From an uncultured Desulfurococcales archaeon (GTDB lineage: Archaea > Thermoproteota > Thermoprotei_A > EX4484-217-1): a stretch of DNA of 64,000 nt. This document shows positions 225 to 49,423 of this stretch, piece after piece (the first letter of the stretch is position 1; the number at the start of each line of letters is the position of its first letter). The position numbers were made by a program, and so were the translations under genes. Below the pieces are notes generated by a model. It had not been told where the DNA came from and searched no databases. It saw only the letters and a program-made list of their open reading frames with translations. The DNA lies in assembly GCA_964564025.1 (NCBI GenBank), contig CAZLZO010000002.1, positions 15,936 to 79,935 of the forward strand. The letters are read 5' to 3'.

Positions 225-287
225 TCTTAAAACAAGCTTAAAACCTAAATATAGTCGTTTTTCTAGTATTGTTGAGGTGAACTAGGC

Positions 288-1019
288 ATTAGAGTCAATA
301 TTAGGCTTTTTGCCATATACAGAGATATTGTAGGCTCAGAGAGAATCACTGTAGATCTTCCGGGAAACTCTACGGTAAAGAATCTTTTAGAGTTTCTTAT
401 AAGAAAATACCCGGAAATAGCTAACTATATTGATGAAAGTGAACCTGAAGAACCAATAATAATTTTAGTTAATGGTGAACCCGCTAATCAAAATACTAAG
501 TTAAATGATGGTGATGAAGTTTTCCTGTTCCCACCAGCATCAGGTGGTTCGCCTGAAGGAGTGATTATTGAGGATGACATTGATATTGAGAAAGTAATTA
601 ATGAACTTAAAAAAACACCTGAATTTGAAAGAGCAGGCGCACTAGTGATTTTTATAGGTTTTGTTAAGGGGGACTTAGGTAATAATGTTAGGGTTCACGA
701 GTTAATATACGAAGCTTATAAACCCTATGCTGAAACTAAACTAAACCAATTAGCCAAGGAATACTCTAAAAAACCAAGTGTTATTGATGTGAAAATATAT
801 CATAAAATCTCGTCACTTAAACCTAAGGAAACTACAGTTTACATTTTCGTAGCTGCTGTAGACAGAAACACAGCCTTTAACGTTGCAAAGGAGGTTCTAG
901 AAAAAGTAAAGCATGAAACACCTATCTGGAAGCTTGAGAGAAGAAATGATGGTGAATACTGGGTTTTGGGTGATGGAAAAAGAGTTCCCAGACCTAAGTT
1001 AATTAGGGAATCTCAATAA
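288..1019 (+). CDS. MoaD-MoaE fusion protein (ThiS/MoaD-like ubiquitin-fold domain ending in GG, fused to the molybdopterin synthase catalytic subunit MoaE); the 5' boundary is uncertain because no canonical start codon is found
   Basis: The frame is open from the stop at 273-275. The translation ..RVNIRLFAIYRDIVGSERITVDLPGNSTVKNLLEFL...VFLFPPASGG is a MoaD/ThiS beta-grasp with a C-terminal Gly-Gly. It continues without a stop into a MoaE domain (..GALVIFIGFVKG...HKISSLKPKETTVYIFVAAVDRNTAFNVAKEVLEKVKHETPIWK). There is no ATG, GTG or TTG in frame before the GTG at 561. Confidence 0.65.
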   Translation: MRVNIRLFAIYRDIVGSERITVDLPGNSTVKNLLEFLIRKYPEIANYIDESEPEEPIIILVNGEPANQNTKLNDGDEVFLFPPASGGSPEGVIIEDDIDIEKVINELKKTPEFERAGALVIFIGFVKGDLGNNVRVHELIYEAYKPYAETKLNQLAKEYSKKPSVIDVKIYHKISSLKPKETTVYIFVAAVDRNTAFNVAKEVLEKVKHETPIWKLERRNDGEYWVLGDGKRVPRPKLIRESQ

Positions 1020-1428
1020 TTTCGACTTCACATAAATCATCGTCTTTAATAATGTAAGCCACAATTGCTTTATCATGCTTACTGATTATAACCCAAGGTA
1101 TCCCCCATAACCTCATGAATTTCAAGTCTCTACTAGATGGTTTTGTAGATGACATGTGCGAATGAAATAAACCGACAATATCCATAGATTTTTTCGCATG
1201 CTTCATTATCTCAAAATACATTTCTTTAGGATCCATAGTAAAACTTAATGGCGAATTGTTTAAGTTCTTTATAAATGAGCATTCTTTAACTATGAACTCC
1301 TTCCCCTTTCTTCTTTCACCAAATAAAATGCCGCAGATCTCTATGTTTTCACTTTCTACTTTACTAAGAATCTTACGTATTACTTCTTTCTTTACAAGTA
1401 ATAGTATTTCACATTTCTTCCTTCCCAT
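1003..1428 (-). CDS. JAMM/MPN+ (Mov34) family metalloprotease, a candidate Ubl/MoaD-processing isopeptidase
   Basis: The protein carries E..CGILFGE and a HSHMSSTKPSSRD motif, i.e. the JAMM pattern Ex(n)HxHx7Sx2D. It is 141 aa, typical of stand-alone archaeal JAMM proteases. It is convergent with the MoaD-MoaE gene and overlaps it by 17 nt. Confidence 0.7.
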   Translation of the reverse strand: MGRKKCEILLLVKKEVIRKILSKVESENIEICGILFGERRKGKEFIVKECSFIKNLNNSPLSFTMDPKEMYFEIMKHAKKSMDIVGLFHSHMSSTKPSSRDLKFMRLWGIPWVIISKHDKAIVAYIIKDDDLCEVEIIEIP

Positions 1429-1521: not shown

Positions 1522-2760
1522 GTGTTTGATATCTTGAGTGTAGTTAAGGAAAACGTTTATTTGAAATGTGTAAACTGTGGTGCAATTTACCCTCCAAACC
1601 CTAAAACATATAAGTGTGCAAAGTGCAATGGCTTACTTTCTGTAGAATATGATTTCTTAAAAACCGAAATTTCATGGGAGGATTTTAAAGGGAAAGGTGT
1701 ATGGCGCTATAAGCAACTTCTCCCTCTTTCAGAAACCTTACTTGATTACGTAATAACATTAGGTGAAGGCAGCACACCACTTATTAGCGTTGAAAATATT
1801 TTTGGTTCAAAAAGCTTCTACGTTAAGTTTGAAGGCGCAAACCCTACGGGGAGCTTTAAGGATAGAGGGATGACGGTTGCAGTTACACTAGCTAAACTTA
1901 TAGGTTCGACATCAGTTATTGTTGCTTCAACAGGAAACACTGCAGCATCTGTTTCAGCATATGCTTCACGAGCCAAAATGAAATCCATAATAGTTTTACC
2001 TAAGGGAAAAGTTGCTTTAGGTAAACTTGCTCAAGCAATACTTCATGGTGCAGAAATTTTTGAAATTGAAGGGAACTTTGATGATGCATTAGAGGTTGTA
2101 AAAAAAGTTGTTGAGAAAGAGCCGAAAATATATCCTTTAAACTCCTTTAATCCATGGAGACTTGAAGGACAAAAGACTATAGCATTTGAAATTGCCGAGG
2201 AAATTAACACGCCAGACTGGGTTATTGTACCTGTGGGTAATGCAGGAAATATTTCAGCAATATGGAAGGGCTTTAAAGAGCTTTACAGATTTAAACTCAT
2301 AAATAAGCTACCAAAAATGGTGGGCGTTCAATCAGAGGGGGCTTCACCATTAGCTAGAGCATTTGAACTTGGATTAAGCAAACCTATTTTCACTGATAAG
2401 CCTGAAACTATAGCAACTGCTATTAGGATAGGTAAACCTGTCAATTGGCCTAAAGCAATGGCTGCAGTTAAGGAATCTAAAGGCCTATTTGTTAAAGTTA
2501 GTGATAAAGAAATATTTGAAGCAATGGTGAAATTAGGTTCCCTTGAAGGTATTGACTCGGAACCTGCAGGAGCAGCTAGTGTTGCAGGTTGTTTAAAACT
2601 TTTAAAGCAAGGCATTATTAAAAGGAACGATAATGTTGTATGTGTAGTTACTGGTCACGCATTAAAAGACCCTGAAATCCTATTAAGAATTCAAGCGAAA
2701 AGAACAACCATGCTTAAGAACAAAGCTATAGAGATAATTTTGAAAACTACTTCCCATTAA
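1522..2760 (+). CDS. thrC: Threonine synthase
   Basis: N-terminal Cys4 zinc ribbon (CVNCG...CAKCNG) typical of archaeal ThrC, and the PLP-lysine motif TGSFKDRG. 412 aa with a GTG start. Confidence 0.85.
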   Translation: MFDILSVVKENVYLKCVNCGAIYPPNPKTYKCAKCNGLLSVEYDFLKTEISWEDFKGKGVWRYKQLLPLSETLLDYVITLGEGSTPLISVENIFGSKSFYVKFEGANPTGSFKDRGMTVAVTLAKLIGSTSVIVASTGNTAASVSAYASRAKMKSIIVLPKGKVALGKLAQAILHGAEIFEIEGNFDDALEVVKKVVEKEPKIYPLNSFNPWRLEGQKTIAFEIAEEINTPDWVIVPVGNAGNISAIWKGFKELYRFKLINKLPKMVGVQSEGASPLARAFELGLSKPIFTDKPETIATAIRIGKPVNWPKAMAAVKESKGLFVKVSDKEIFEAMVKLGSLEGIDSEPAGAASVAGCLKLLKQGIIKRNDNVVCVVTGHALKDPEILLRIQAKRTTMLKNKAIEIILKTTSH

Positions 2761-6441: not shown

Positions 6442-9009
6442 ATGATCTTTGAGATTATTCCTTGGTATCTTTACAGACCTGATGCAGTAGAAGTTTGGCG
6501 TAATGAAAGTGTTAAACGTAGATTATGGTGGTACTATCGTGTCATGAAGGATGTGAAGCCGGCTAAATTCATGATAGCTAAGCGTATTGAAGTAAATGAA
6601 GATCCTAAGAAATTAGATTATGATGGATTATGGAATTTACATAATGAAGTAGCAAAAGTTTTTAGAGAAGTTTTCAATAAAATAGAAGAAAACAAATTAG
6701 ATTTTGAAGAGCTACCTAAACCTAAAATCAATTTCTTGGATGTAAAAATAGCGATTGTAAATGAAATGCTTAAGGAATGCATATTTTGTGAGAGAAAATG
6801 TAAAGTTAATAGAGCTAAGGGCGAGAAAGGCTACTTCTGCAAGCTCGATTACAGAACATATGCTCACTCATGGTTTCATCATTTAGGAGAAGAATCGCCT
6901 CTCGTGCCAAGTGGCACAATATTTTATGGATCATGCAACTTCAAGTGTGTATTCTGCTTGGACGAAGATGATTACTTGCTAGTAAGAATTAATAAAATTA
7001 TTTCAATTAAGAAAGTAAAGGAAGTTGCGAAAACATTAAAAGAGGCTAGAGAAGTAGAGGTTCTAACATTAAGTGGATGGAGAAAAATAGATGATATAAT
7101 TTCCAGGGAAACAGACGTAATTTATGAGGTAGTCACTAATAGAGGTAAGAGAGTAAAGCTTACGCCAGAACATATAGTAATAGTGCAAAATAATAATGAA
7201 TTAAAGGAAAAATATGCTAAAGATTTAAAAGTAGGAGAGAAACTTATAACTTTACCGTGCATTCTGCTTTCCAAAGAATCTATTATTGAAAACAGTATTA
7301 GTGCAATAAATTTAATTGAAGAATTTGATCGAAAACTACCATGTGATCTGAAAGAAAAAATTAGGGTAAAAAATGTTAATAAGGCTTTACGAAAACTGCA
7401 TAAGAAATATAACATTAGTTTTAAGGAATTATTTACCAAAGCTGGTATAAAGAATTTCAAGTATTATTGGCTCCGTATAGATTCTATTCCATTACCAGAG
7501 TTTATTAAACTGTACAGAAAGTACTATAGCGAATTAAGCAAGTATAACGAGACATATATGTTGTCCATGAAGAAGGGAGTAAAATACTACATACCCGCTT
7601 TAATTAATATATCTAAAGAGCTCATGAGACTTTTGGGATACTTTATAGCCGAAGGTAACTATCTTAGAGAGCACGGACTAGTTTTTACAACATCAAATAG
7701 GCGTATCCAACAAGATATTTTACATTGCATAAAATCCATTATTCCCAATTTAGACGGAATAAAATTACTCTACAACTATAGAGGAAAAACGCCTCAAATA
7801 ATAGTGCCAAGCAGATTACTATACATATTATTTAGATATGTTTTAAATATAGGGAGAAAAGCCCATAATAAAAGCATTCCATGGATTGTTTTTAATGTAA
7901 GTAAGACTTTCTTAAAGGAGTTCCTTTCTGCCTATTTAACAGGAGACGGAACATTAAGCATAGGGAAAAAAGGAGTGTTTTACATAAGATTCGTAACAAC
8001 ATCTGAACGGATGGCTTATGAATTAAGCTACATATTGGGATTAAACGGTGTCCAATATAGAATTAAAGAGAGATTACCTTCTGTAAAATATGTCCTTCCT
8101 ACAGGTCATGTAAGCAAGCATAAACAATTCTGGATAGATATTAATGGTACATTTGATATACTCAAATTAACCGAAATTGCAATATTTCTTGACGATAGAA
8201 AAGAAAAAATGTTTAAAAAACTGGGCTTAACAAAAAAGATGAAGAAAGTAAGGAAGGCAGACTATGTAAAAGAAGTAAGGGTAATTAGAAGGAGAAAGAA
8301 AGTTTACGATATAGTCTTAAGAGCTTCAAATAATGTTCTTGACGAACACGTATTCTTTGCAGGTAATGGCATATTAATACATAACTGTCAAAACTATGAT
8401 ATTAGTCAAGAAAACATTTATGGTGGTGTTGTCGTAACTCCAGAGTCGTTAGCTCTTATTCAGAAGGAGCTAAGAGTGAAGGGAGCTAAAAATATAAATC
8501 ATGTAGGTGGAGATCCTACGCCAAATTTACACACCATCGTAAACTCACTGAAATTTCTTGATGTAAATGTCCCGCAGCTATGGAACAGCAATATGTACTT
8601 GACTAATGAAGCAATGGATATCCTAGTTGATTTAATTGACATATGGCTTCCAGATTTTAAATATGGTAATAATAAATGTGCTTTAATGCTTTCAAGTGCA
8701 CCACGATACTTTGAAGTTGTTACTAGAAACTTAAAGGCAGCTATTAAATATGGAGACATGATAATTAGGCATCTTGTGTTACCTAATCATTTAGAGTGCT
8801 GCACGAAACCCATTCTTAAATGGATTGCCGAAAATTTGCCTAAAGACAAAGTTTTAGTGAATATTATGGGACAGTATAGGCCGGAGTTTAAAGTCTTAAG
8901 AACACCTGAAAAATGGCCTGACATAACTAGGAGACCCACTTACGAGGAAATGGCTGAAGCATACGATTATGCTAGAAGACTTGGCATAGTTTTCGAGCCT
9001 GTAAGCTAA
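6442..9009 (+). CDS. PflX-type radical SAM enzyme (pyruvate formate-lyase activating enzyme-like, COG1313-like) interrupted by an in-frame intein
   Basis: N-terminal Cys cluster CIFCERKC...YFC. The radical SAM motif C165-NFK-C169-VF-C172 reads CNFKCVFCQNYDIS once the intein is removed. The mature extein is about 378 aa, typical for PflX. Confidence 0.8.
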   Translation: MIFEIIPWYLYRPDAVEVWRNESVKRRLWWYYRVMKDVKPAKFMIAKRIEVNEDPKKLDYDGLWNLHNEVAKVFREVFNKIEENKLDFEELPKPKINFLDVKIAIVNEMLKECIFCERKCKVNRAKGEKGYFCKLDYRTYAHSWFHHLGEESPLVPSGTIFYGSCNFKCVFCLDEDDYLLVRINKIISIKKVKEVAKTLKEAREVEVLTLSGWRKIDDIISRETDVIYEVVTNRGKRVKLTPEHIVIVQNNNELKEKYAKDLKVGEKLITLPCILLSKESIIENSISAINLIEEFDRKLPCDLKEKIRVKNVNKALRKLHKKYNISFKELFTKAGIKNFKYYWLRIDSIPLPEFIKLYRKYYSELSKYNETYMLSMKKGVKYYIPALINISKELMRLLGYFIAEGNYLREHGLVFTTSNRRIQQDILHCIKSIIPNLDGIKLLYNYRGKTPQIIVPSRLLYILFRYVLNIGRKAHNKSIPWIVFNVSKTFLKEFLSAYLTGDGTLSIGKKGVFYIRFVTTSERMAYELSYILGLNGVQYRIKERLPSVKYVLPTGHVSKHKQFWIDINGTFDILKLTEIAIFLDDRKEKMFKKLGLTKKMKKVRKADYVKEVRVIRRRKKVYDIVLRASNNVLDEHVFFAGNGILIHNCQNYDISQENIYGGVVVTPESLALIQKELRVKGAKNINHVGGDPTPNLHTIVNSLKFLDVNVPQLWNSNMYLTNEAMDILVDLIDIWLPDFKYGNNKCALMLSSAPRYFEVVTRNLKAAIKYGDMIIRHLVLPNHLECCTKPILKWIAENLPKDKVLVNIMGQYRPEFKVLRTPEKWPDITRRPTYEEMAEAYDYARRLGIVFEPVS
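6955..8385 (+). mobile_element. Intein (477 aa) with a LAGLIDADG homing-endonuclease domain
   Basis: Begins with Cys (CLDEDDYLLVRI, block A). Block B is TPEHIV. The LAGLIDADG motifs are LLGYFIAEGNY and FLSAYLTGDGTLS. It ends ...GILIHN followed by a +1 Cys (CQNYD). Confidence 0.8.
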
Positions 9010-9373: not shown

Positions 9374-12223
9374 ATGTTTGAAGATTCAGCTATAAGCATA
9401 GAGAATCCGAAGATAGTAGAGTTACTTAGGGAGAAGGGGTGGAGAGAGCTTACAACACCTCAAAAACTTGCTATTCCTAAGATAAAGGAGGGATATAATG
9501 TACTAATAATAGCACCAACAGGTTATGGTAAAACCGAAGCAGCAATTCTTCCTGTTTTCGAAAAAATGATTGAGGAGAAAGCGGAACCTGTTGCCGTAGT
9601 TTACATAACTCCTTTAAGAGCATTGATAAATGATATAACTAGAAGGTTAAGGTGGTGGGGTTCTAGACTAGGTTTCACTGTTGCTAGAAAGCATGGTGAT
9701 GTTCCATCATCTGAGAAAGCTAAGAGATTAAGGAAGGCACCACATGTCATAGTTACAACGCCTGAAAGTTTAGAAATAGATCTTGACTGGGCTCAGAAGT
9801 TTAGAAGCTACTATAGGAATGTTAAATGGGTTATCGTAGATGAGGTCCATGAGCTAATTTCGTCTAAAAGAGGAATTCAGCTTATTCTACTATTAGAGAG
9901 GCTTCGGAAACTTACAAACTATGATTTTCAAAGAATAGGTCTTTCAGCGACTATAGGGGATCCTGAGAAAGTAGCGAAATTCCTATTTGGATCTTCAAAG
10001 AGGAAAAGCGTTATAATTGAAATTGGCAGAAGCAAGAAGACAATAATAGAAGTTGATGCCGTACAGTCTAAAAGCGATGATGATTTATGGGAACAGGTAG
10101 CTAAAACAATAATAGAGCACATTGAGCCTCCAAGCCTAATCTTCGTAAACTCCAGGTCAACTGCAGAAAGACTGCATGAATACTTGGAGAAGACGGGATT
10201 AAAGGAGATCCAAGTTCATCACTCTTCGGTTTCTAGAAACATAAGGGTAACTGTTGAGAAAGATCTTCTCGAAGGCAAGCTTAAAGGTGTTGTTTGCACA
10301 AAAACCCTTGAACTAGGTATCGACATAGGCGATATAAAGAAGGTTATTCAATTTAGACCTCCAGGTTCAGTAACTACGCTCCTTCAGAGGGTAGGGAGAA
10401 GTGGCCATAAATTCTACGATGTATCTAAGGGAGCAATTATAGGTTTAAATGAAGTTGATATTTTAGAAACTTTAGCTACAATCTCTTTAGCATTAAGGAA
10501 CGAACTTGAAGAACCACAAATATTAGAAAAACCTCTTGATGTTTTAGCTAGAGAAATTTTGGGTATAGTTCTTCAATATGGGGAAGTTGATGCTGAAATG
10601 ATTTATGAAATAATATCTAAAGCTTATGCTTACAAAACACTTAGCTTCGATGAGCTTACAAAGCTACTAAAATACATGGAGGCTAATGGCTTACTCTCCA
10701 AAGTAGATAATTCAAAATATAAAATAGGTCCAACATTCTTTAAAATATGGAGATTTGATACTGACACAGCTTTTAGAAGATGGTGGGCTAGAAGTTTTAC
10801 AGAGTTCTTTACCACAATAGGTGAAAGACCTTCGTTTCAGGTAAAGCATGGTGACATAATAGTAGGTGATGTTGATTCACAATATGTTTATAGATACTTA
10901 AGAGTTGGAGACGTTGTTAGACTCTCGGGAAGAAACTGGAAGATCGTTGACGTTGATGATATTAGCATGAAAATTTCAGTTATACCTGCTTCTACAGAAG
11001 AAGCGGAAGTACCTATATGGAGAGGAGAGGGAGCTAGACGTTCTAAGAAAATATCCTATGAGGTGGGGAGATTACTTCATAAAGTAGTTAATGGAGGTAA
11101 ATTAGACTTACCAGAGAATGTTAAAGTGTTCAATTCAGCAATCTTTTACATAAGCAAGCTGTATAAGGCATATAGGGGTAAGGAAGATTTACTACCTGAT
11201 GAAAAAACTATGGTGATTGAAAAACATGGTGATGAAACAGTTTTCCTCTTCTGGATGGGTCAAAATATAGCTGAAACTCTTGCACACATCATAATGTACC
11301 TTATATCAACTAAGTACACATTAAATGTTTATGTAAAGTCATCGTATGTAGGCTTTTCAGTAAGAGTAAGAAATATTGATCCAGTGAAGATATTATTGGA
11401 TGTAACACCTAGTAAAGTTGAAAGACTTGTTGAATTGTCCCTTGAGCGTTCTCCATTATACTACGCTATTTTGAAGGAACTTCAAGTAAGCTTTGGAAAG
11501 ATAGGTAAATTGGATCCTGAGAAAGACTCATTAATTATAGAAGAGGCTAAGAGGCAAGTAAAGTCACAATACATGGATGTTGAAGGGGCGAAGGAGCTTT
11601 TAAGAAAAATACATAGTGGAGAGATAAACCTAGTTTATGCTAGAAACGTCGAAACTCCCTTAGGGAAGTATGTTAAAGAATTACCGCCAATAAGGCCATG
11701 GATTAAGGACGCATCTCTTCTAATAGTTGAAACTCTCGAAAATATGGCATTAACTGTCGATGAACTTTCAGAAATCCTTGAATTACCATCTAAAACCATA
11801 GAAAATAAGCTTAAGGACCTAAGAAAACCTGATGTTGTTGATAGAGTGTTTCAATTTATTGATATAGATATTGGTGAGTGGAGATGGGCTTTAATTAAGG
11901 ATGCTAAAAAGATTTATGAATCACCGGAATATAGACAGTCTTTCGAACCATACGATGTCGACGAAGTCTACACATTATATATAAAGCCTATTAACGGGCT
12001 GTCATATTTCACATTGTACTTTTCGGCTAGAGAGATAATTTCGAATTTTAAGAAGTTTCTAGAGAGGGTCCCGGTTAGCGAAGCTTACGAGGTTAGAGTT
12101 ATACCATCAGATTCTATGCTTAAAACATTAACGCCAAGATACTTTTATGTACCTAAGAACATAATACCTTATGTTGCCTTAAACGGAATAACTTATATGC
12201 AAATGCTGAAAAGGTCGAGTTAG
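9374..12223 (+). CDS. lhr: Lhr-type (large helicase-related) superfamily 2 DEVH-box helicase
   Basis: Motif I APTGYGKTEAA, ITPLRAL, motif II DEVHEL, then SAT and VNSRSTAERL. 949 aa with a long C-terminal Lhr-core-like extension. Confidence 0.8.
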   Translation: MFEDSAISIENPKIVELLREKGWRELTTPQKLAIPKIKEGYNVLIIAPTGYGKTEAAILPVFEKMIEEKAEPVAVVYITPLRALINDITRRLRWWGSRLGFTVARKHGDVPSSEKAKRLRKAPHVIVTTPESLEIDLDWAQKFRSYYRNVKWVIVDEVHELISSKRGIQLILLLERLRKLTNYDFQRIGLSATIGDPEKVAKFLFGSSKRKSVIIEIGRSKKTIIEVDAVQSKSDDDLWEQVAKTIIEHIEPPSLIFVNSRSTAERLHEYLEKTGLKEIQVHHSSVSRNIRVTVEKDLLEGKLKGVVCTKTLELGIDIGDIKKVIQFRPPGSVTTLLQRVGRSGHKFYDVSKGAIIGLNEVDILETLATISLALRNELEEPQILEKPLDVLAREILGIVLQYGEVDAEMIYEIISKAYAYKTLSFDELTKLLKYMEANGLLSKVDNSKYKIGPTFFKIWRFDTDTAFRRWWARSFTEFFTTIGERPSFQVKHGDIIVGDVDSQYVYRYLRVGDVVRLSGRNWKIVDVDDISMKISVIPASTEEAEVPIWRGEGARRSKKISYEVGRLLHKVVNGGKLDLPENVKVFNSAIFYISKLYKAYRGKEDLLPDEKTMVIEKHGDETVFLFWMGQNIAETLAHIIMYLISTKYTLNVYVKSSYVGFSVRVRNIDPVKILLDVTPSKVERLVELSLERSPLYYAILKELQVSFGKIGKLDPEKDSLIIEEAKRQVKSQYMDVEGAKELLRKIHSGEINLVYARNVETPLGKYVKELPPIRPWIKDASLLIVETLENMALTVDELSEILELPSKTIENKLKDLRKPDVVDRVFQFIDIDIGEWRWALIKDAKKIYESPEYRQSFEPYDVDEVYTLYIKPINGLSYFTLYFSAREIISNFKKFLERVPVSEAYEVRVIPSDSMLKTLTPRYFYVPKNIIPYVALNGITYMQMLKRSS

Positions 12224-14455: not shown

Positions 14456-17400
14456 TTATGTTTCAACTTTAGCTTTTTCAGCATGAACTCTAACATACGG
14501 CTTGTTAAGCATCGTTAAAAGGTCTCTCAATACTTCAATGTAATTTAACTTACCCTTCTCTATAAGATTCATGGTCTCTTCAAGCTTTCTTGTGGTTTCC
14601 TCTGAAACAAGGTGCTTATAGTTTTTGTTAAGATATTCATATACTTTAATACCTAGAGTTGTTGGAACTAAATACTTGTTCTTACTTTCTATTACGTAAC
14701 CGTGCTTAAGTATGGAGGATAATATTTTAGCGTAAGTTGAAGGCCTACCTATTCCTCTATCTTTCATTAATTTAATTACGTCTCCCTGCCTATACAGGGA
14801 ATTTAATGAACCTTTCCACATTTTACAATCAACTATTCTTATTACTGATCCTTTGTTTACATTATTTAAGCTTAATACTTGCTGTATTGGAAGAATCTTG
14901 AGAAATCCTTCTTCAACGACTTTGCTTATAAACTCTACAGTCTTGGCATCCTCTCCGATCTTAACCGTTAACCTTACCTTTTCAACTATAGCAGATTTCA
15001 TTTGACTTGCAATAAATCTTCTGAATATGAGGTCATATACTTTGAAATGCGTATAAGTGAAGTTTGCAAAGGTCCTTAACGTTCCATTTAGTAAGAGTTT
15101 TTTAAGAGTTTCAGCATCATAGGGTTTTGTAGGCCTAATGCATTCATGTGTTCCTTCGGCACCCCAGTTTCTTAACTTTATAAGGTCATTACACTTTAAC
15201 GTATTGAATATGTATTCTTTAGCTACTTCAAACCCTGCGTTTGAAACATGCGTGCTATCTGTTCTATGGTATGTTATAAAGCCTGATTCAAAGAGGTCTT
15301 GAAGAACCCTCATAGCAAATTGAGCGTCTAATCTGTATTTACTAGTGAGCTCTGAAAGTAGAGTATTCGTTGTGTAAGGGGGTGGTGGGTTTATTTTCTC
15401 AATAAATGTCGTTTTTATTAAGATTAACGCGCCGTTTTTAACGTATTCTTTAATTAATGATTTATCAAAGTAAACATCATAATCAAATCTTACTTTTAAT
15501 CCGCCTTCTAAAATGTACTCGGCGAAGAGTCTTCTTGAGGCTTTCCATTTTTTGTGTTGTTTTATTATCCATCCTAGTACTGGTGTTTGTACTCTTCCTG
15601 CTGATAGCCAGTGTTTTCCGAAAACACCCCAAAGCCTCCTTGAAAGCTCAAAACCAATCCAACGATCCTCAACACGCCTAACAACCTGAGCCTCAACAAG
15701 AAACCTATCTATTTTTCGCGGGTTCGCTAAAGCCTTTATTATAGCCTTCCTCGTTATTTCGTGGAATTCTATTCTGAAAATGTTTTTTACGTAGGGTTTA
15801 AGTAGTAGCATGACGTCCCATGCTATTTTCTCACCTTCACTGTCAGGATCTGTTCCAATAAATACCATGTCAACTTCTTGAGCAAGCTTTCTTAGGGTAT
15901 CTATAATGCTTTTCGAATCAAATATTTTTGTTGAGCCGCATTTTGGACAAACAACGCTATTTAACGTATATTGATGGCCGCATTCTCTACATTTCTTTAT
16001 TGTAGTATATATGGGAGCTATAGTGTCGGAGTCTACAAGTACACCAAAATACCCCATGGTTGATGATGTTGTTAAGTCAAGTATGTGTCCTTTAGTAGCA
16101 ACTATAGATAACATGTAATCTTTTGATCCCAGCTTAGGATCTCCTACAAGTACTTCATAAACTACTACTCCATTTATTCTTCTTTTCGATGGTTTACCGA
16201 AGAAGTAGGCTATGGTTCTGGCTTTTGTTGGAGATTCAACAACAAATAAAGCGGGGATAATAGGGTCTTGGTATTTTGCTTCAATCTCTCCTCTCAATAT
16301 TTTTCTAATAACTTCCCTGTCTCTATCTATTTCATGAAGAATCTTGCTTAAATTGATTTCATCAAATTTCTTTATTTCAAAACTATCGATATAATACCTC
16401 AATTGCTTAATTAATTTCTTAAACACCTTTTCATCATCAACCAATATTATGCTAAGACCCTTCGTCATTCCGTTTGCAAACATTCTAGATGTTCTACCGC
16501 TAGCTTGAATATACGTCATAACATCCGGTGAGACTATGTAAGTTTTACCTTTAAATTCCCTAAGAATTAATAACTGTGATTTCTTCAGTTTATCCCTAAT
16601 AATTGAATCCGATATTTTGTTAAGAATGAATTTTTTTGCTTCAAGTATTATTTGCAAGAGCTTACCTAGGTACCCTTTAAGCTCTATGTTCTCGCTTATT
16701 GCTCTCCTTAGTATCTTTAATTCTTTAAAGCTAATTTTATCTAATGATTTTGATAGAATGTTAATGGTCTTCCTTATATATTTCAGTTCATCCTCGTTTT
16801 CAACAGCTTCTTCTAATGCTGTTAAGAGAACAATTATCTTTACAGGATTATTCAATCCCTTTTCTAATTCTATTTGAAACTTAGGAACCCCTAAGAAAAT
16901 AGCGTATCTTATTCTATCAGGTATGTCTATTCCTCTAACTATTACGCCATAGTAATTTGCGATGCCTACTAGTATGTCGGTTTTTCCTTCAACAAATCTT
17001 TTAATATAACCATGTCGTGAGGATGAAGCAAGCTCAGCTTTTATGCCGTTTTCCCTTAATTTTTCTACTAGCTTCCTAGCTTCCTTAACCCCTAGATCTT
17101 GAGATACGAATATTAATCCTCCATTTCCCAGCTTCTTAATTAATGAAATTACTTGTTTTACATAGTCTTTCTCTAAGGGCATGTATGTGTCTACAACGTT
17201 TCTCATATACTCTATTACTGTTCCAGCTTCGAACTTTAGAAGTTCTTTAAACATCTTAGCTTTAAGACCTTTACTTCTACCAGTAGCGCTGCATACAAGT
17301 ATTTGCCCTAATTTTGTTTCTTTAACATATTTTTCGATTTCCGCTTTATATTCTCTTATTTTTTCCCTTATCCTAGCTATTTTGTTTTCATTAGAGCCTG

Positions 17401-18163
17401 AAATTACAAGTTTAAAGAAGTCTATTTTACTTACTATGAGCTTGTATGCTATCTCAAGTATTCTATCATTAAATCCTATGAGCTTTAAAATTCTGTCTAT
17501 ATTTCTAGAGTTCCTAAGTAAAGCATCAACATCATCAACTATTATTAGCGAGAATCTATATGTTCCTATTTTTGCAAAGTTTTTTGAAAGATAAGCTGAT
17601 GTGGTTATGAGTAATTGGAAATTTCCAGTTTCCAGAAGATCTTCATTAATTATACCTGGTGAGCAAATGTTTAAGGTGATGCCAAGTTTGGAAACAAACT
17701 CCAAAGCTTTCTTCGTGACTTGGTCTTGAAGATTTTTCGTGGGAACTATGATGTATGCTCGGCTTTTACTTTTAAATGCATGGTATAGTGCATAAATTAT
17801 GGAAAACGTTGTTTTACCAACTCCCGTAGGAGCTATGATGGCAAAGCTTTCACCTTTCAAAAGCCTTTTAGCCCAAGTTCTTTGAGCACTCCAAGGCTTC
17901 TTTCCAGAAGCTTTACTAAAGAATACTTCGAACTCCTTAATGCTTCTTTCAATATTTAAAATTTCTTTGTAACCATAAAGTTTTTTTCTCGTTAAAAGAT
18001 TAATGTAGACATTTTCTTTTAAGGATAATTTATCTAATTTAACATGTTCTAAACCATTTAGGCAAACTCTACATGGAAGACCCTTTATTAGTCTCTCAGT
18101 ATCTATGAAACCCCCACAATTAGGGCAAGCATGTTCTATAATAGCGTAAGGCAAAATCGCCAC
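14456..18163 (-). CDS. rgy: Reverse gyrase
   Basis: 1235 aa. N-terminal zinc ribbon (CPNCGG...CRVC), helicase motifs (APTGVGKTT, DDVD) and a C-terminal type IA topoisomerase domain. GTG start. No intein (normal length). Confidence 0.95.
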   Translation of the reverse strand: MAILPYAIIEHACPNCGGFIDTERLIKGLPCRVCLNGLEHVKLDKLSLKENVYINLLTRKKLYGYKEILNIERSIKEFEVFFSKASGKKPWSAQRTWAKRLLKGESFAIIAPTGVGKTTFSIIYALYHAFKSKSRAYIIVPTKNLQDQVTKKALEFVSKLGITLNICSPGIINEDLLETGNFQLLITTSAYLSKNFAKIGTYRFSLIIVDDVDALLRNSRNIDRILKLIGFNDRILEIAYKLIVSKIDFFKLVISGSNENKIARIREKIREYKAEIEKYVKETKLGQILVCSATGRSKGLKAKMFKELLKFEAGTVIEYMRNVVDTYMPLEKDYVKQVISLIKKLGNGGLIFVSQDLGVKEARKLVEKLRENGIKAELASSSRHGYIKRFVEGKTDILVGIANYYGVIVRGIDIPDRIRYAIFLGVPKFQIELEKGLNNPVKIIVLLTALEEAVENEDELKYIRKTINILSKSLDKISFKELKILRRAISENIELKGYLGKLLQIILEAKKFILNKISDSIIRDKLKKSQLLILREFKGKTYIVSPDVMTYIQASGRTSRMFANGMTKGLSIILVDDEKVFKKLIKQLRYYIDSFEIKKFDEINLSKILHEIDRDREVIRKILRGEIEAKYQDPIIPALFVVESPTKARTIAYFFGKPSKRRINGVVVYEVLVGDPKLGSKDYMLSIVATKGHILDLTTSSTMGYFGVLVDSDTIAPIYTTIKKCRECGHQYTLNSVVCPKCGSTKIFDSKSIIDTLRKLAQEVDMVFIGTDPDSEGEKIAWDVMLLLKPYVKNIFRIEFHEITRKAIIKALANPRKIDRFLVEAQVVRRVEDRWIGFELSRRLWGVFGKHWLSAGRVQTPVLGWIIKQHKKWKASRRLFAEYILEGGLKVRFDYDVYFDKSLIKEYVKNGALILIKTTFIEKINPPPPYTTNTLLSELTSKYRLDAQFAMRVLQDLFESGFITYHRTDSTHVSNAGFEVAKEYIFNTLKCNDLIKLRNWGAEGTHECIRPTKPYDAETLKKLLLNGTLRTFANFTYTHFKVYDLIFRRFIASQMKSAIVEKVRLTVKIGEDAKTVEFISKVVEEGFLKILPIQQVLSLNNVNKGSVIRIVDCKMWKGSLNSLYRQGDVIKLMKDRGIGRPSTYAKILSSILKHGYVIESKNKYLVPTTLGIKVYEYLNKNYKHLVSEETTRKLEETMNLIEKGKLNYIEVLRDLLTMLNKPYVRVHAEKAKVET

Positions 18164-44687: not shown

Positions 44688-46502
44688 TCAACTTGAAACA
44701 TCTATTCTAACTACGATAGGGTCATTCACTACACTATCTTTAATTATAGCATGAAACATCGGTAAATAGTATAATGCTTTTCTCACCATATCATATCTGT
44801 TATCAGTAACGAATCCGGCAAATGTTTTAGCTATATAATCTAAATTCTCCGGCTCTGAAAGTTTGAAAGATATTTTAGTGACTGCATTTGCAACTATGGA
44901 TTCATCGATGTCCAATGGTTGCTGAGTTATAACTACAAAGCCTATACCATATTTTCTACTTTCCATCATTAGTTTTGCTACAAGCGATGGTTCAACTCCC
45001 CTCCTGCATAGCCTATGAGCTTCATCTATTACTATGTAGTTTAGAAGTCTTCGTTTCTCTCCAGTAGCGTACATTTTGTGAGCTATTTTTCTAAGAACCG
45101 TTTCAGCGAGGATAGATTTAACGTAGTCTCCTGGCAAGTTGGCCATAGCTATTACACTTGGTTTTTCAAGAAGCTTTTGAAACTCTATTGTGGTGTTTCT
45201 AAATATAGTGATGGAGAGCGTTCTTAAATATGGCTTTAAACTTTCATATCTAGCTCTTTCAGCTGAAGTTCTCGCATATTCTATTCTTTTCTCAACAACC
45301 TTCAGTAATGTTTGAAAAGTTGGAGGAGTGTTATTCCAAGATTCCTCATCATCTATTAGTATTCCCTTTTCCGCATAAGCTTCTTCAATTAAGTCCTCAA
45401 GAACTGTTCTTTGGAGGTTTCCTAGCTTAAAAACTCTTTGCAGTGTATCAGCTACTTGAACTGTTCTCTCTCTTGGCGATGCACCATCAAGTTCTAAAGG
45501 GTTAATTGATATTTTAGATGCGTCTACAACTACACCATTAAGTTGTTTGATTAAATCTACGTATTCATTATGAGGATCAAGTATTAACGAAGGAATACTC
45601 CATGTAAGGTAGAGTTCTTTCACCAATTTTTTAGCTAAGCTAGACTTACCTGTGCCACTAGTTCCTGTGATTAATACATGGTAATTAACCTGCATATAAG
45701 GGTTAAAAGCGTACTCTTCATCCTCTATTCGCCAATACCATGAGGGTGATTTTGTTGCAGTTATTCTATTCTTTAACCACTCATTAACAGGTTTACCATA
45801 AGTTAACGATGCCACGAGTTTTCCTAAAACAATACCCTCTCTTACGACTTCTAGCCTCTTTCCTCTTGATATTTCCTTCGGCGGAATATGTATTGAATAG
45901 GGTATTAGTATCCATGAGAGAAGAGGCACTAAAATAGTTGCTTGACCTAATTCACGTATAAATAATGAGGAAATTAAGACTCCTGTTAAATATATTATTT
46001 CGTCAAGTAAAGTTAGTGGTCTTAAAATTATTAATAGTAATGAAAGAAGCATTATTATAAGTACCTTCTTAGGTTTTATTTCAATGTTAAAACTTCTCCT
46101 CTTGATGCTTTCTATGAGAAAATCTCCCTTCTTAATTATGAAGGTCCATGAATAGTACAGTGTTATGTAGGTTGCAAATATAGTTAGATAGGTTATAGGG
46201 TTTTTTATGAAGGAGTCTATTGAGAATACTAAATAGTATAGTGATGTGCTTCTCACTAAAAATGCTACGAAAAGCACGTACCTTTTTAAAATGTTCATTC
46301 CAAACGTTAATGCTAAGGTGCTTACGAAAGCCAGTGTTGGAGATTCTAAAAGCGTAGCTGTAATTAGTTGAAATGTTATTATCACCGTATAAAGAATTGG
46401 TACTATGATTAAAGAGCCAACATTACTTACTAAAGCTAACAATAGGAATAATGCTACGATGAAAACTAAGTTTACTACTAAGATAACTTTATTAATACGC
46501 AT
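44688..46502 (-). CDS. Membrane-anchored HerA/VirB4-like (DUF87) P-loop ATPase, a CedB-like paralog
   Basis: 5-6 N-terminal TM helices. Walker A GTSGTGKSS, the DUF87-type NPLE motif and Walker B IVIDEAHRL. 604 aa. Confidence 0.6.
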   Translation of the reverse strand: MRINKVILVVNLVFIVALFLLLALVSNVGSLIIVPILYTVIITFQLITATLLESPTLAFVSTLALTFGMNILKRYVLFVAFLVRSTSLYYLVFSIDSFIKNPITYLTIFATYITLYYSWTFIIKKGDFLIESIKRRSFNIEIKPKKVLIIMLLSLLLIILRPLTLLDEIIYLTGVLISSLFIRELGQATILVPLLSWILIPYSIHIPPKEISRGKRLEVVREGIVLGKLVASLTYGKPVNEWLKNRITATKSPSWYWRIEDEEYAFNPYMQVNYHVLITGTSGTGKSSLAKKLVKELYLTWSIPSLILDPHNEYVDLIKQLNGVVVDASKISINPLELDGASPRERTVQVADTLQRVFKLGNLQRTVLEDLIEEAYAEKGILIDDEESWNNTPPTFQTLLKVVEKRIEYARTSAERARYESLKPYLRTLSITIFRNTTIEFQKLLEKPSVIAMANLPGDYVKSILAETVLRKIAHKMYATGEKRRLLNYIVIDEAHRLCRRGVEPSLVAKLMMESRKYGIGFVVITQQPLDIDESIVANAVTKISFKLSEPENLDYIAKTFAGFVTDNRYDMVRKALYYLPMFHAIIKDSVVNDPIVVRIDVSS

Positions 46503-46588: not shown

Positions 46589-49423
46589 ATGCTTAGCAAT
46601 AAAAACAAACATACTTCAAATGAAGAGAATGTGTTTAGCATACTAAATCCTAAACTCAAAAGTGTTATTCAAAAATATGGATATTTAGAGCCTACAAAAG
46701 TTCAGAGTAAAGCCATACCGCTCATACTCAAAGGCTATAATATATTAATTGTGGCACCGACAGGGGCAGGAAAAACTGAAGCAGCACTATTTCCCATATA
46801 CTCGAAAATTATTGAAGAGAACTTTGCAAATGGAATTCAAGCACTTTATATAACACCTCTTAGAGCCTTAAATAGAGATATTCTGGTAAGAATGGGGAAA
46901 ATAGCTAAAGACATAGGTTTAAATATAGCTGTAAGACATGGTGATACAACCTACTATTTTAGAAGAAAGATAGCAGAGAATCCGCCACACTTGCTAATAA
47001 CAACTCCTGAAACTCTTCACTACCTTCTGGTTCACGCTATTATGAGAAAAGTTCTTAAAAGTATTAAATGGGTTGTTGTTGATGAAGTAAACGAGTTAAT
47101 GGGTAGTAAGAGAGGCGTAATACTTTCAGTAGCTTTGGAAAGACTTGTTAAGCTCTGTGGAAGGGAATTTCAAAGAATAGGGCTTTCAGCGGTTATAGGA
47201 AATGTTGAAGCAGCTAAAAGGTTTTTAGGAGGACCTAGATATGTTGAAGTTGTTGAAGTATATTATCAGAAGCCATATGAGATTATTGTCGAAGTTCCTC
47301 AGCCTACAAGTGAGGATGAAATAATTGCTTTACGTGAAGGCATTTCACCTAGCACCATGGCTAGATTAAGAAGAATAGTTGAGATCCTTGAAAAGTCTAA
47401 ATCAGGTATAGTCTTCACCAACACAAGAGATTTGGCTGAGCTCTTATCCTCAAGATTAAAGAGAACATTCAATATTGATGTCGGAGTACATCATGGCAGC
47501 TTATCAAGAAATGTTAGATTAACTCTAGAATCAGAATTTAAACAAGGCATCATAAGATACGTGGTAGCTACATCATCTTTGGAATTAGGTATAGACGTGG
47601 GTGAAGTAGATGTAGTGATTCAGTATGGTTCTCCAAGACAGGCAACAAAGCTTCTACAAAGAATAGGTAGGTCTGGACATAGAGAAACTGAGAAATCGAA
47701 AGGCTATGTTATAGCCTTAGCTAACGTAGATGACGCATTAGAATCCCTTGTATTAGCAAGAAGAGTTATTGATAAAAATTTGGAAAGTGAAAGCACTTAT
47801 GAAAACCCGCTTGACGTTATAGTTTATGAAACTGCTGGATTGCTTCTTGAATATGGAGAGATCTCCGTAGACGAGGTCTTTAAGATATTGAGGAGATCTT
47901 TCTACTACAGGAAGTTAAGCTATGCTACTCTTATTGAAACATTAAATTTTGCTTCGGCGATAGGTGTCATTTCTTTTGACGGAAAAATATTAAGGAAAAC
48001 TAGGAGAACTAAGATTTACTATTATGATGTTTCAATGATACCTGATGTAAGGCATTTCTTAGTTAAAAATATTATAGACAACACTATAATAGGGCAGCTT
48101 GACGAAGATTTTGTGATTTCATCACTTAACGTAGGAGCTAAATTTTTGCTTTCAGGAAAGGTTTGGGAGACATTAGATTATGATGAAAAATACGTTTATG
48201 TTAAACCTGCTGAAGATTCTTGGGGTGCTCTTCCTAAATGGGAGGGTGAACTTATACCTGTTGATTATAAGGTTTCTAGGGAGGTAGGCGCTTTAAAACG
48301 TAGAATAATAGAGAAGGGACTCACTGTTCTCAGAAAATATCCGACTTCTCAATCTCTTCTCAATTTCATTGAAAAGCAAATTAAGGAACATTATTCTAAG
48401 ATGGGATGGATTCCTACAGATAGAGAGGTTGTAGTTGAGATAATTGGAGGCAAAAATGTTATTGTAAATTCACATTTAGGTAGTAAAGGAAATTTTGGCC
48501 TAATGCTGTTGCTTACATACTTTCTAAGAAAACGAGGAGTAAATGTTGTAAGCAAAAGTGATCCGTATAGAGTAGTTCTGATGAGCAACTCAATAGTGCA
48601 TTTTGAGGAAATAATTAATGACTTAATTAGCATTAACAATGAGGATTTAAAGTACTTACTAAGAGAGAATATTAAGAAGAGTAATGTGTTTAAATGGCGT
48701 TTGTACAACGTGGCCAAAAGGTTTGGAGCTATAAGGAAAGATGTTAGTGTAAAAAAGGTTTCAAACATTTTAGCATACTATGTTGATACACCTATAGGTT
48801 ATGAGGCATTTAATGAAATAATTGTTGATAAAATAGATTTAAATGCTATTTTCGAGTTCATTGACTCAATTAGAAAAGGTAGGGTTAAAGTGAAATTTGT
48901 TTACTTAGAAGATTATTCACCGCTAACTATGCAAGCCTTAACAACTTATTCTTACTATGATGTTTCAGTAAAGCTCACTCCCATGGGAGAAATAATAGAG
49001 TTATTTAAGCGCAGAGTTGTAGAAAAGCGGGTTAAGCTTGTGTGTTTAATGTGCGGTAGTGTTATAGACGAAGTTAAGATTGCTGATCTTCCAGACTATC
49101 CTAAGTGTAATATTTGCGGGTCAGGTTTTTTAACAATAACATCTACGGGGTCAAGAGACGTAGAAATTATTGTGCGCAAGATGCTGAGAAAGCTTAGACT
49201 AAATCCTGCTGAAAAAGCTATGTTAAGAGAAGAAAAGTTAAAGGCCGATCTTGTGTTAAGATTTGGTAAACCAGCTATAATTGCTCTTTCAACATTTGGT
49301 GTTGGATATAAAACTGCGGCGAGAATAGTTGGAAAGTTTTTTGAAAATGAGAGTGAATTTTACAAAGCTCTCATAGAAGCTGAAACATTATTTATTAGAA
49401 CAAGAAGATTCTGGAAAAGCTAA
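46589..49423 (+). CDS. lhr: Lhr-type SF2 DEVH-like helicase (second paralog)
   Basis: APTGAGKTEAA, ITPLRALN, VDEVNEL, then SAV and a C-terminal Lhr-core-like domain with a zinc ribbon (CLMCG...CNICG). 944 aa. Confidence 0.8.
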   Translation: MLSNKNKHTSNEENVFSILNPKLKSVIQKYGYLEPTKVQSKAIPLILKGYNILIVAPTGAGKTEAALFPIYSKIIEENFANGIQALYITPLRALNRDILVRMGKIAKDIGLNIAVRHGDTTYYFRRKIAENPPHLLITTPETLHYLLVHAIMRKVLKSIKWVVVDEVNELMGSKRGVILSVALERLVKLCGREFQRIGLSAVIGNVEAAKRFLGGPRYVEVVEVYYQKPYEIIVEVPQPTSEDEIIALREGISPSTMARLRRIVEILEKSKSGIVFTNTRDLAELLSSRLKRTFNIDVGVHHGSLSRNVRLTLESEFKQGIIRYVVATSSLELGIDVGEVDVVIQYGSPRQATKLLQRIGRSGHRETEKSKGYVIALANVDDALESLVLARRVIDKNLESESTYENPLDVIVYETAGLLLEYGEISVDEVFKILRRSFYYRKLSYATLIETLNFASAIGVISFDGKILRKTRRTKIYYYDVSMIPDVRHFLVKNIIDNTIIGQLDEDFVISSLNVGAKFLLSGKVWETLDYDEKYVYVKPAEDSWGALPKWEGELIPVDYKVSREVGALKRRIIEKGLTVLRKYPTSQSLLNFIEKQIKEHYSKMGWIPTDREVVVEIIGGKNVIVNSHLGSKGNFGLMLLLTYFLRKRGVNVVSKSDPYRVVLMSNSIVHFEEIINDLISINNEDLKYLLRENIKKSNVFKWRLYNVAKRFGAIRKDVSVKKVSNILAYYVDTPIGYEAFNEIIVDKIDLNAIFEFIDSIRKGRVKVKFVYLEDYSPLTMQALTTYSYYDVSVKLTPMGEIIELFKRRVVEKRVKLVCLMCGSVIDEVKIADLPDYPKCNICGSGFLTITSTGSRDVEIIVRKMLRKLRLNPAEKAMLREEKLKADLVLRFGKPAIIALSTFGVGYKTAARIVGKFFENESEFYKALIEAETLFIRTRRFWKS

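Follow-up and report, generated by a model that had tools for sequence, protein, structure and literature searches.

We analysed a 64,000-nucleotide (nt) stretch of contig CAZLZO010000002.1 (positions 15,936 to 79,935 of the forward strand; hereafter the window) from an uncultured Desulfurococcales archaeon. We focused on a gene in which a MoaD/ThiS-type sulfur carrier is fused to MoaE, the catalytic subunit of molybdopterin (MPT) synthase, and on the adjoining gene for a JAMM/MPN+ metalloprotease. Translation of the fusion very likely begins at an AUU codon at position 288, behind a strong Shine-Dalgarno (SD) motif, and the locus is probably a self-contained pair of precursor and maturase for MPT synthase in this hyperthermophile. 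Fusions of this kind and their processing by JAMM proteases are already known, and the conserved AUU start with its co-varying SD motif is the sole unusual feature. The features of the locus are as follows (aa, amino acids).

245-255, plus strand: A/T-rich TATA-like box CTAAATATAG, a putative archaeal promoter read from the sequence
274-280, plus strand: Shine-Dalgarno motif GAGGTGA, 7 nt upstream of ATT288
288-290, plus strand: predicted ATT initiation codon, aligned with Met1 of canonical-start orthologues and followed by 91 further codons without a canonical start
288-1019, plus strand: MoaD(ThiS)-GG-SPEGVI-MoaE fusion, 243 aa read from ATT288
288-548, plus strand: MoaD/ThiS-type beta-grasp sulfur-carrier domain, aa 1-87, ending in Gly86-Gly87 (nt 543-548)
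549-566, plus strand: linker SPEGVI, with the predicted scissile bond Gly87/Ser88 placed by analogy with HvJAMM1 (PMC4443979)
567-1019, plus strand: MoaE domain (molybdopterin synthase catalytic subunit) and stop codon
1003-1019, both strands: 17-nt convergent overlap of the 3' ends of the fusion and JAMM genes
1003-1428, minus strand: JAMM/MPN+ (M67) metalloprotease, 141 aa, with E30 at 1339-1341 and HSHx6SxxD at 1126-1164

The fusion gene encodes complete MoaD and MoaE domains

The frame from 276 to 1019 on the plus strand is open, and a TGA at 273-275 closes it on the upstream side. The product read from ATT288 matched Pfam ThiS (PF02597) at 58.3 bits (cut-off 22.5) over aa 5-87, covering profile positions 1-76 of 76, and TIGR01687 moaD_arch at 73.6 bits (cut-off 49.5). 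This part also matched SAMP1, and the matches to SAMP1 and MoaD in the PDB spanned aa 1-88. The remainder matched Pfam MoaE (PF02391) at 88 bits (cut-off 23.4) over aa 94-210, covering profile positions 2-114 of 114, and matched MoaE structures in the PDB, including Mycobacterium tuberculosis MoaX (9jbd), at E values of about 4e-14. The junction reads ...PPASGG-SPEGVI..., in agreement with the initial annotation, which had described a MoaD/ThiS beta-grasp ending in GG and fused in frame to MoaE.

In the orthologue alignment G86 and G87 are invariant; they lie inside the polypeptide and become C-terminal only once it is cleaved. K208 and K215 are also invariant, with the seven-residue spacing of the catalytic lysine pair known from characterised MoaE proteins. 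We take them to be the equivalents of E. coli K119/K126 and Haloferax K240/K247 (the Haloferax pair partly from PMC4443979).

Translation of the fusion is predicted to start at ATT288

A reading-frame scan agreed with the initial annotation that no in-frame ATG, GTG or TTG occurs between the upstream stop (273-275) and GTG561, the first canonical start after position 276; none occurs before codon 92 counted from ATT288. Within the window, moaDE is the only real open reading frame (ORF) whose first canonical start lies far inside the open frame (a gap of 95 codons, versus 0-16 for the others), and no other real ORF there requires a non-canonical start. The motif GAGGTGA at 274-280, which had gone unmentioned in the initial annotation, is a 7-nt match to the crenarchaeal SD consensus. 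It shares the in-frame TGA stop at 273-275 and occurs only six times in the window, both strands counted. A box similar to the TATA-like one, AAAGTATAAAG, occupies the equivalent place in the relatives L004, L008, L092 and L093. If used as a promoter, the window's box would give a 5' untranslated region of about 12-16 nt, little beyond the SD motif itself.

Contigs of relatives were drawn from independent ENA, Logan, JGI and NCBI assemblies, among which six sequence-distinct ATT lineages were distinguished: the window with L007 (~97% identical), L003 (the same as L009), L004-6, L008, L092 and L093. The five lineages other than that of the window encode proteins 68-75% identical to the window's, at a synonymous divergence (dS) of 1-2. 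ATT stands at the equivalent codon in all six lineages, with the frame opening 2-7 codons upstream, and in each it is preceded at 6-7 nt by GAGGTGA, GGGGTGA or GAGGTG. The SD motif stays while the remaining intergenic DNA diverges. In the protein alignment, the residue encoded by ATT falls on Met1 (MKVKV...) of more distant orthologues, which begin with ATG, GTG or TTG. In the alignment of upstream DNA, the nearest relatives with ATG or TTG (L010-L012, which carry the JAMM gene) lack a strong SD motif; thus, the weak codon goes together with a strong SD. These results support the suggestion of the initial annotation that translation initiates at the non-canonical ATT288.

The missing canonical start might instead be an artefact, with an ATG misread as ATT, or a sign of 5' decay that left a MoaD remnant and only MoaE made from GTG561, as the initial annotation had allowed. 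The public gene calls, which give either a 152-aa MoaE (P0005) or truncated products of 204-213 aa (P0001-P0004), fit such a view. However, the same ATT was found in the independent assemblies and across lineages at dS of 1-2, and purifying selection acts on the MoaD part as strongly as on MoaE (ratio of nonsynonymous to synonymous divergence, 0.04-0.22 versus 0.06-0.24), which together rule out a sequencing error or a pseudogene. Position 561 carries a Phe or Leu codon in relatives, so that expression of MoaE alone from GTG561 was also rejected. Starts at codon 30 or 38 would remove the first beta-grasp strands; the Pfam ThiS match needs aa 5-87. The initial annotation had further held that orthologues with a separate moaD, having its own start and stop, would indicate a local sequence error; all close relatives carry the fused gene. 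An artefact or decay is therefore extremely improbable.

Alternatively, the MoaD half could be translated from elsewhere, by way of another near-cognate codon, reinitiation or a frameshift from an upstream frame. Near-cognate codons do lie just upstream of ATT in some lineages (ATA in L009 and L092, a second ATT in L092 and L093), but none of them is common to all lineages, and the open frame extends only 2-7 codons upstream. A reading frame begun at the out-of-frame GTG at 277 would end after two codons, and no conserved upstream ORF was present, the upstream gene being glnA in the window and others in L003. No Rfam family matched the 5' region, whose folding was unremarkable (z = 0.21). An upstream ORF, a frameshift or a structured leader thus found no support in this region, and we regard initiation elsewhere as very unlikely.

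Several points weigh against the use of AUU288. The identity of the ATT codon alone is unremarkable, as 7 of 14 invariant Ile columns share one codon across the six lineages, and it was dropped as a statistical argument given this baseline. The literature searched contained no experimentally validated AUU-initiated archaeal gene, and aIF1 reportedly makes initiation complexes less stable when they form on non-AUG mRNA (PMC6237735). In Haloferax ribosome profiling, near-cognate putative starts were noted and then set aside. The case for ATT288 is made by the alignment with Met1, the closed frame, the lack of a canonical start and the conserved SD motif, taken together, and on these grounds we hold AUU288 to be the very likely start of translation.

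Two separate observations concern moaD starts in other genomes. In a Thermofilum sp. metagenome-assembled genome (MAG; JAJHRT010000007.1, L070:2988-3003), a separate moaD follows the design of the window's gene: it is preceded by GAGGTGA containing an in-frame TGA stop, followed by a 6-nt spacer and then CTG, and its first canonical start lies 35 codons downstream. In a Desulfurococcales MAG (L031:2990-3009), GGTGA is followed by CTG CTG AAG GTG. Given these two loci, near-cognate starts on moaD may recur in Thermoproteota.

Public gene calls are truncated at the N-terminus

In the window's clade, all public calls of the fusion gene are N-terminally truncated. P0005 consists of the 152-aa MoaE only, and P0001-P0004, at 204-213 aa, drop the first 29-37 residues of MoaD (P0001-P0005, L001-L009, L092 and L093 examined). 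The internal GTG or ATG starts chosen by the gene callers, at codon 30 or 38, are not conserved, and the internal GTGs are absent from the window. With an ATT start, gene callers miss the first half of the gene. The main consequence of the locus is one of annotation: pathway reconstruction from the truncated calls would wrongly report MoaD as missing, and start models limited to ATG, GTG and TTG overlook a conserved archaeal gene.

The convergent gene encodes a JAMM/MPN+ protease with intact catalytic residues

The ORF on the minus strand scored 44.9 bits against Prok-JAB (cut-off 25) and 30.5 bits against JAB. Its motif is E30...H89-S-H91-x6-S98-x2-D101 (HSHMSSTKPSSRD, nt 1126-1164), so that all the catalytic residues recognised in the initial annotation are present. 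E30, H89, H91, S98 and D101 are invariant in nine members of the clade, the whole of which shares the x6 spacing. The closest solved relative is Pyrococcus furiosus PfJAMM1 (5LDA/5LD9), with an E value of 2e-21 over aa 10-138. Against the haloarchaeal desampylase equivalog NF041370 the protein scored 49.7 bits, under the cut-off of 130, which makes it a homologue and not an equivalog by the NCBI criterion.

The gene is convergent with the fusion and overlaps its 3' end by 17 nt at 1003-1019, as had been described. In relatives the overlap is 17 nt (L003, L004), 11 nt (L093), 4 nt (L092) or absent (L087). As its length ranges between 0 and 17 nt, we rejected the overlap as a conserved requirement and as a functional element.

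Homologues of this JAMM also occur beside other genes. In Thermococcus alcaliphilus (L088:4001-5130), one of the homologues nearest to the clade from outside is convergent with a MobB-FeS gene of the molybdenum cofactor (Moco) pathway, and on another archaeal contig (L090:2782-4408) a JAMM gene and the gene of a TtuA-type tRNA thiolase are separated by a single gene, that of ribosomal protein L13e. The MobB and TtuA neighbours fit a JAMM1 family that would serve ubiquitin-like (Ubl) sulfur carriers.

Fused loci are widespread, and JAMM adjacency is confined to one clade

A genome scan found the window to be ~97% identical to an uncultured Desulfurococcales MAG (CAYOTT010000001.1) and recovered relatives of the fusion locus across Thermoproteota, in Pyrobaculum, Thermoproteus, Ignisphaera, Sulfolobales, Thermofilaceae and Desulfurococcales. 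Among the loci compared, 43 were fused, 33 carried separate moaD and moaE, and 11 showed MoaE only by tblastn, two of these 11 being in fact fused to a divergent MoaD. GG was present at the junction in all 43 fused loci. Among archaea, Ubl-MoaE fusions have been described as confined to Crenarchaeota (Cao 2015, PMC4443979), with 18 of 35 Thermoproteales and 5 of 30 Desulfurococcales carrying them (PMC11237513).

JAMM neighbours were sought within 3 kb of the fusion loci by a clade-specific profile and a motif scan; a search with a single JAMM sequence had given only three matches, and the profile search was needed. These searches placed a JAMM gene within 3 kb of moaDE in a single clade, that of the window, which comprises the window itself, L001-L012 and L087; adjacency as a general rule for fused loci was thereby ruled out. 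The JAMM of this clade forms a tight subfamily, scoring at least 180 bits in the profile search versus at most 124 bits for all others. In L087 and L012 the neighbouring thrC gene is lost, yet JAMM and moaDE stay together. According to S1 Table of Cao 2015 (PMC4443979), each crenarchaeal fusion is paired with a JAMM in the same genome; the same table lists, for Pyrolobus fumarii, the fusion G0EF74 and the JAMM G0EF75, which are consecutive UniProt accessions. The two genes are probably adjacent also in this cultured member of the Desulfurococcales.

Other observations speak against the adjacent JAMM as the maturase of the fusion. Its spacer is x6 and not the canonical x7 that the initial annotation had reported, and is one residue shorter than that of PfJAMM1. 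More than 30 other fusion loci, for example in Pyrobaculum, Ignisphaera and Sulfolobales, have no JAMM within 3 kb. In addition, the wider gene order (glnA, TPR, YdjM and an intein-bearing radical-SAM gene) is conserved in the JAMM-adjacent clade, so that adjacency is weak independent evidence, suggestive and not strong.

The JAMM could accordingly be a general enzyme for Ubl deconjugation or maturation, or act on another substrate, with its position reflecting synteny and the fusion being cut by a different protease or JAMM. Such a role would suit an adjacency seen in a single clade with broadly conserved gene order, the presence of JAMM elsewhere in most fusion-bearing Thermoproteota (Cao 2015 S1 Table, PMC4443979), and the placement of JAMM1 homologues beside other sulfur-carrier clients (TtuA or MobB). 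Set against it are the survival of the pair through the loss of thrC and the insertion of other genes (L087, L012), the tightness of the clade's JAMM subfamily, and the apparent adjacency in a second lineage suggested by the P. fumarii accessions; moreover, a general role and a fusion-cutting role are not mutually exclusive. We consider this alternative possible but unlikely. The family matches, together with published reports of JAMM proteases cutting such fusions (PMC4443979, PMC8832034), bear out the proposal of the initial annotation that the adjacent JAMM is the likely processing enzyme.

A proposed route from precursor to active MPT synthase

On the reading that we favour, in which fusion and JAMM form a precursor-maturase pair, a short-leader mRNA with a strong SD (GAGGUGA) would place the 30S subunit, and initiator tRNA would start at the near-cognate AUU288. 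The 243-aa MoaD-GG-SPEGVI-MoaE polypeptide would be made, probably slowly and at a low level, with the strong SD partly offsetting the weak start codon. The uncut fusion would be inactive, because Gly87 of the MoaD part needs a free carboxylate for adenylation and thiocarboxylation. The zinc protease of the adjacent convergent gene, a JAMM/MPN+ enzyme, is predicted to cut exactly after Gly-Gly (Gly87), as its homology and the published systems suggest. The free MoaD would then be adenylated and thiocarboxylated by an E1-type activating enzyme encoded outside the window; a Pfam survey of ~50 ORFs in the window found neither an E1 gene (ThiF/MoeB/UbaA) nor any further gene of the Moco pathway. 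Finally, MoaD and a MoaE dimer would assemble into active MPT synthase, for which the fusion would guarantee a 1:1 stoichiometry.

For the study of archaeal translation, the locus would make a clean natural experiment: an SD-led crenarchaeal mRNA with a predicted near-cognate AUU start, for which the ATG and TTG relatives without the SD could serve as controls. The Ubl field gains little from it beyond one more crenarchaeal MoaD-MoaE precursor, for which the neighbouring maturase would make a convenient thermostable enzyme-substrate pair.

Other genes in the window

The remaining features recorded in the window are as follows.

1522-2760, plus strand: threonine synthase with a Zn ribbon at the N-terminus, transcribed divergently from the JAMM gene (TIGR00260 thrC, 297 bits; ThrC in the PDB, E 7e-96)
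6442-9009, plus strand: 855-aa radical SAM protein with an intein bearing a LAGLIDADG homing endonuclease (Intein_splicing, LAGLIDADG_3, Radical_SAM)
9374-12223 and 46589-49423, both plus strand: two paralogous Lhr-type large helicases (DEAD, Helicase_C, WH_Lhr, DEAD_assoc)
14456-18163, minus strand: reverse gyrase, with helicase, Toprim and topoisomerase IA domains and a reverse-gyrase zinc finger
44688-46502, minus strand, and 54896-56737, plus strand: two HerA/DUF87-type ATPases
49388-51421, minus strand: 677-aa protein with a PAPS-reductase-type domain and a C-terminal 4Fe-4S dicluster ferredoxin domain

The reverse gyrase gene identifies the source of the window as a hyperthermophile. The same intein-bearing radical SAM gene was also seen in the relative L087 (1-671).

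The ThrC homologue (1522-2760) carries an extra N-terminal CxxC...CxxC zinc ribbon of ~55 aa. The thrC gene adjoins the JAMM-moaDE pair in most members of the clade but not in L012 or L087. With a threonine-synthase homologue, a JAMM and a sulfur-carrier domain as neighbours, the locus recalls the thiocarboxylate-based MetO/Mec/MetM pathway of Streptomyces, in which MetM is, according to the passage of a GapMind preprint that cites Hasebe 2024, a ThrC homologue often annotated as threonine synthase and Mec a JAMM-type hydrolase. The three genes could then constitute a route from O-phosphohomoserine to homocysteine with the released MoaD as sulfur donor. However, the ThrC core closely resembles genuine threonine synthases (E 7e-96 to 2ZSJ) and lies above the TIGR00260 cut-off, its linkage to the pair is not obligatory, as L012 and L087 show, and the fusion of the carrier to MoaE suggests Moco synthesis. 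We therefore judge a homocysteine module of this type highly improbable, and the thrC neighbour probably lies outside the precursor-maturase module.

Comparison with known systems

A natural system close to the locus is that of Deinococcus radiodurans DR2607 and DR0402 (DRJAMM) (Yang 2018; PMC8832034), in which a natural linear MoaD-GG-MoaE fusion is cleaved by DR0402, a small stand-alone JAMM/MPN+ protease that exposes the C-terminal Gly. The window likewise holds a single ORF with MoaD followed by MoaE, a GG junction and a JAMM/MPN+ gene in the same genome. In Deinococcus, cleavage has been demonstrated and is required for MPT synthase function, whereas for the window cleavage is predicted by analogy, and cPMP accumulates in the drJAMM mutant while being undetected in the wild type (PMC8832034). 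The Deinococcus system differs in being bacterial and in that dr_0402 and DR2607 are not adjacent, and PMC8832034 reports no non-canonical start.

In the archaeon Haloferax volcanii, the JAMM1-family protease HvJAMM1 (Hepowit 2012; Cao 2015, PMC4443979) cuts a Ubl-MoaE fusion after Gly-Gly into active MPT synthase. It cleaves linear SAMP1-MoaE exactly after the terminal Gly of the Ubl and is needed for the activity of the fusion in vivo, where Moco-dependent growth was supported only with jamm1 present (PMC4443979). In contrast to the window, however, the Haloferax fusion was engineered, samp1 and moaE being separate genes, and the window's JAMM falls under the desampylase equivalog cut-off. 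PfJAMM1 of P. furiosus (5LD9, 5LDA) is of the same size as the window's JAMM and has the same catalytic E, HxH and SxxD, but it has the canonical x7 spacer in place of the x6 of the window's clade. Its complex was solved with SAMP2 and not with a MoaD-MoaE fusion, according to the summary in PMC8832034.

M. tuberculosis MoaX (Narrandes 2015; PDB 9jbd) is likewise a MoaD-MoaE fusion that needs cleavage at GG for activity, although it is bacterial. In Mec+/CysO of M. tuberculosis and Mec/MetO/MetM of Streptomyces, a JAMM is encoded beside a ThiS/MoaD-type carrier and a pyridoxal phosphate (PLP) enzyme and trims the C-terminus of the carrier. These carriers differ in feeding cysteine or homocysteine synthesis and in being unfused to MoaE, whereas the PLP neighbour in the window resembles a genuine ThrC and is missing beside the pair in some relatives. 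As for MoaX, we know of no protease identified as the one that cleaves it.

For the start codon, a known parallel is E. coli infC (La Teana 1993), which encodes IF3 and reportedly has a conserved AUU start behind an SD motif; initiation there is weak and responds to fidelity factors. Similarly, the AUU of the window's locus is conserved among orthologues, lies at a functional distance from an SD and competes with no canonical start. The archaeal counterpart of IF3 as fidelity factor would be aIF1. By analogy with IF3 and infC, AUU with a strong SD might act as a translational throttle or sensor, with synthesis of the precursor set by start-codon stringency through aIF1, and the locus might be the first natural conserved AUU-initiated archaeal gene to be recognised; we regard this wider interpretation as possible but quite unlikely. 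The bacterial infC has a demonstrated IF3 autoregulatory loop, whereas the use of AUU in the window is predicted from sequence comparison.

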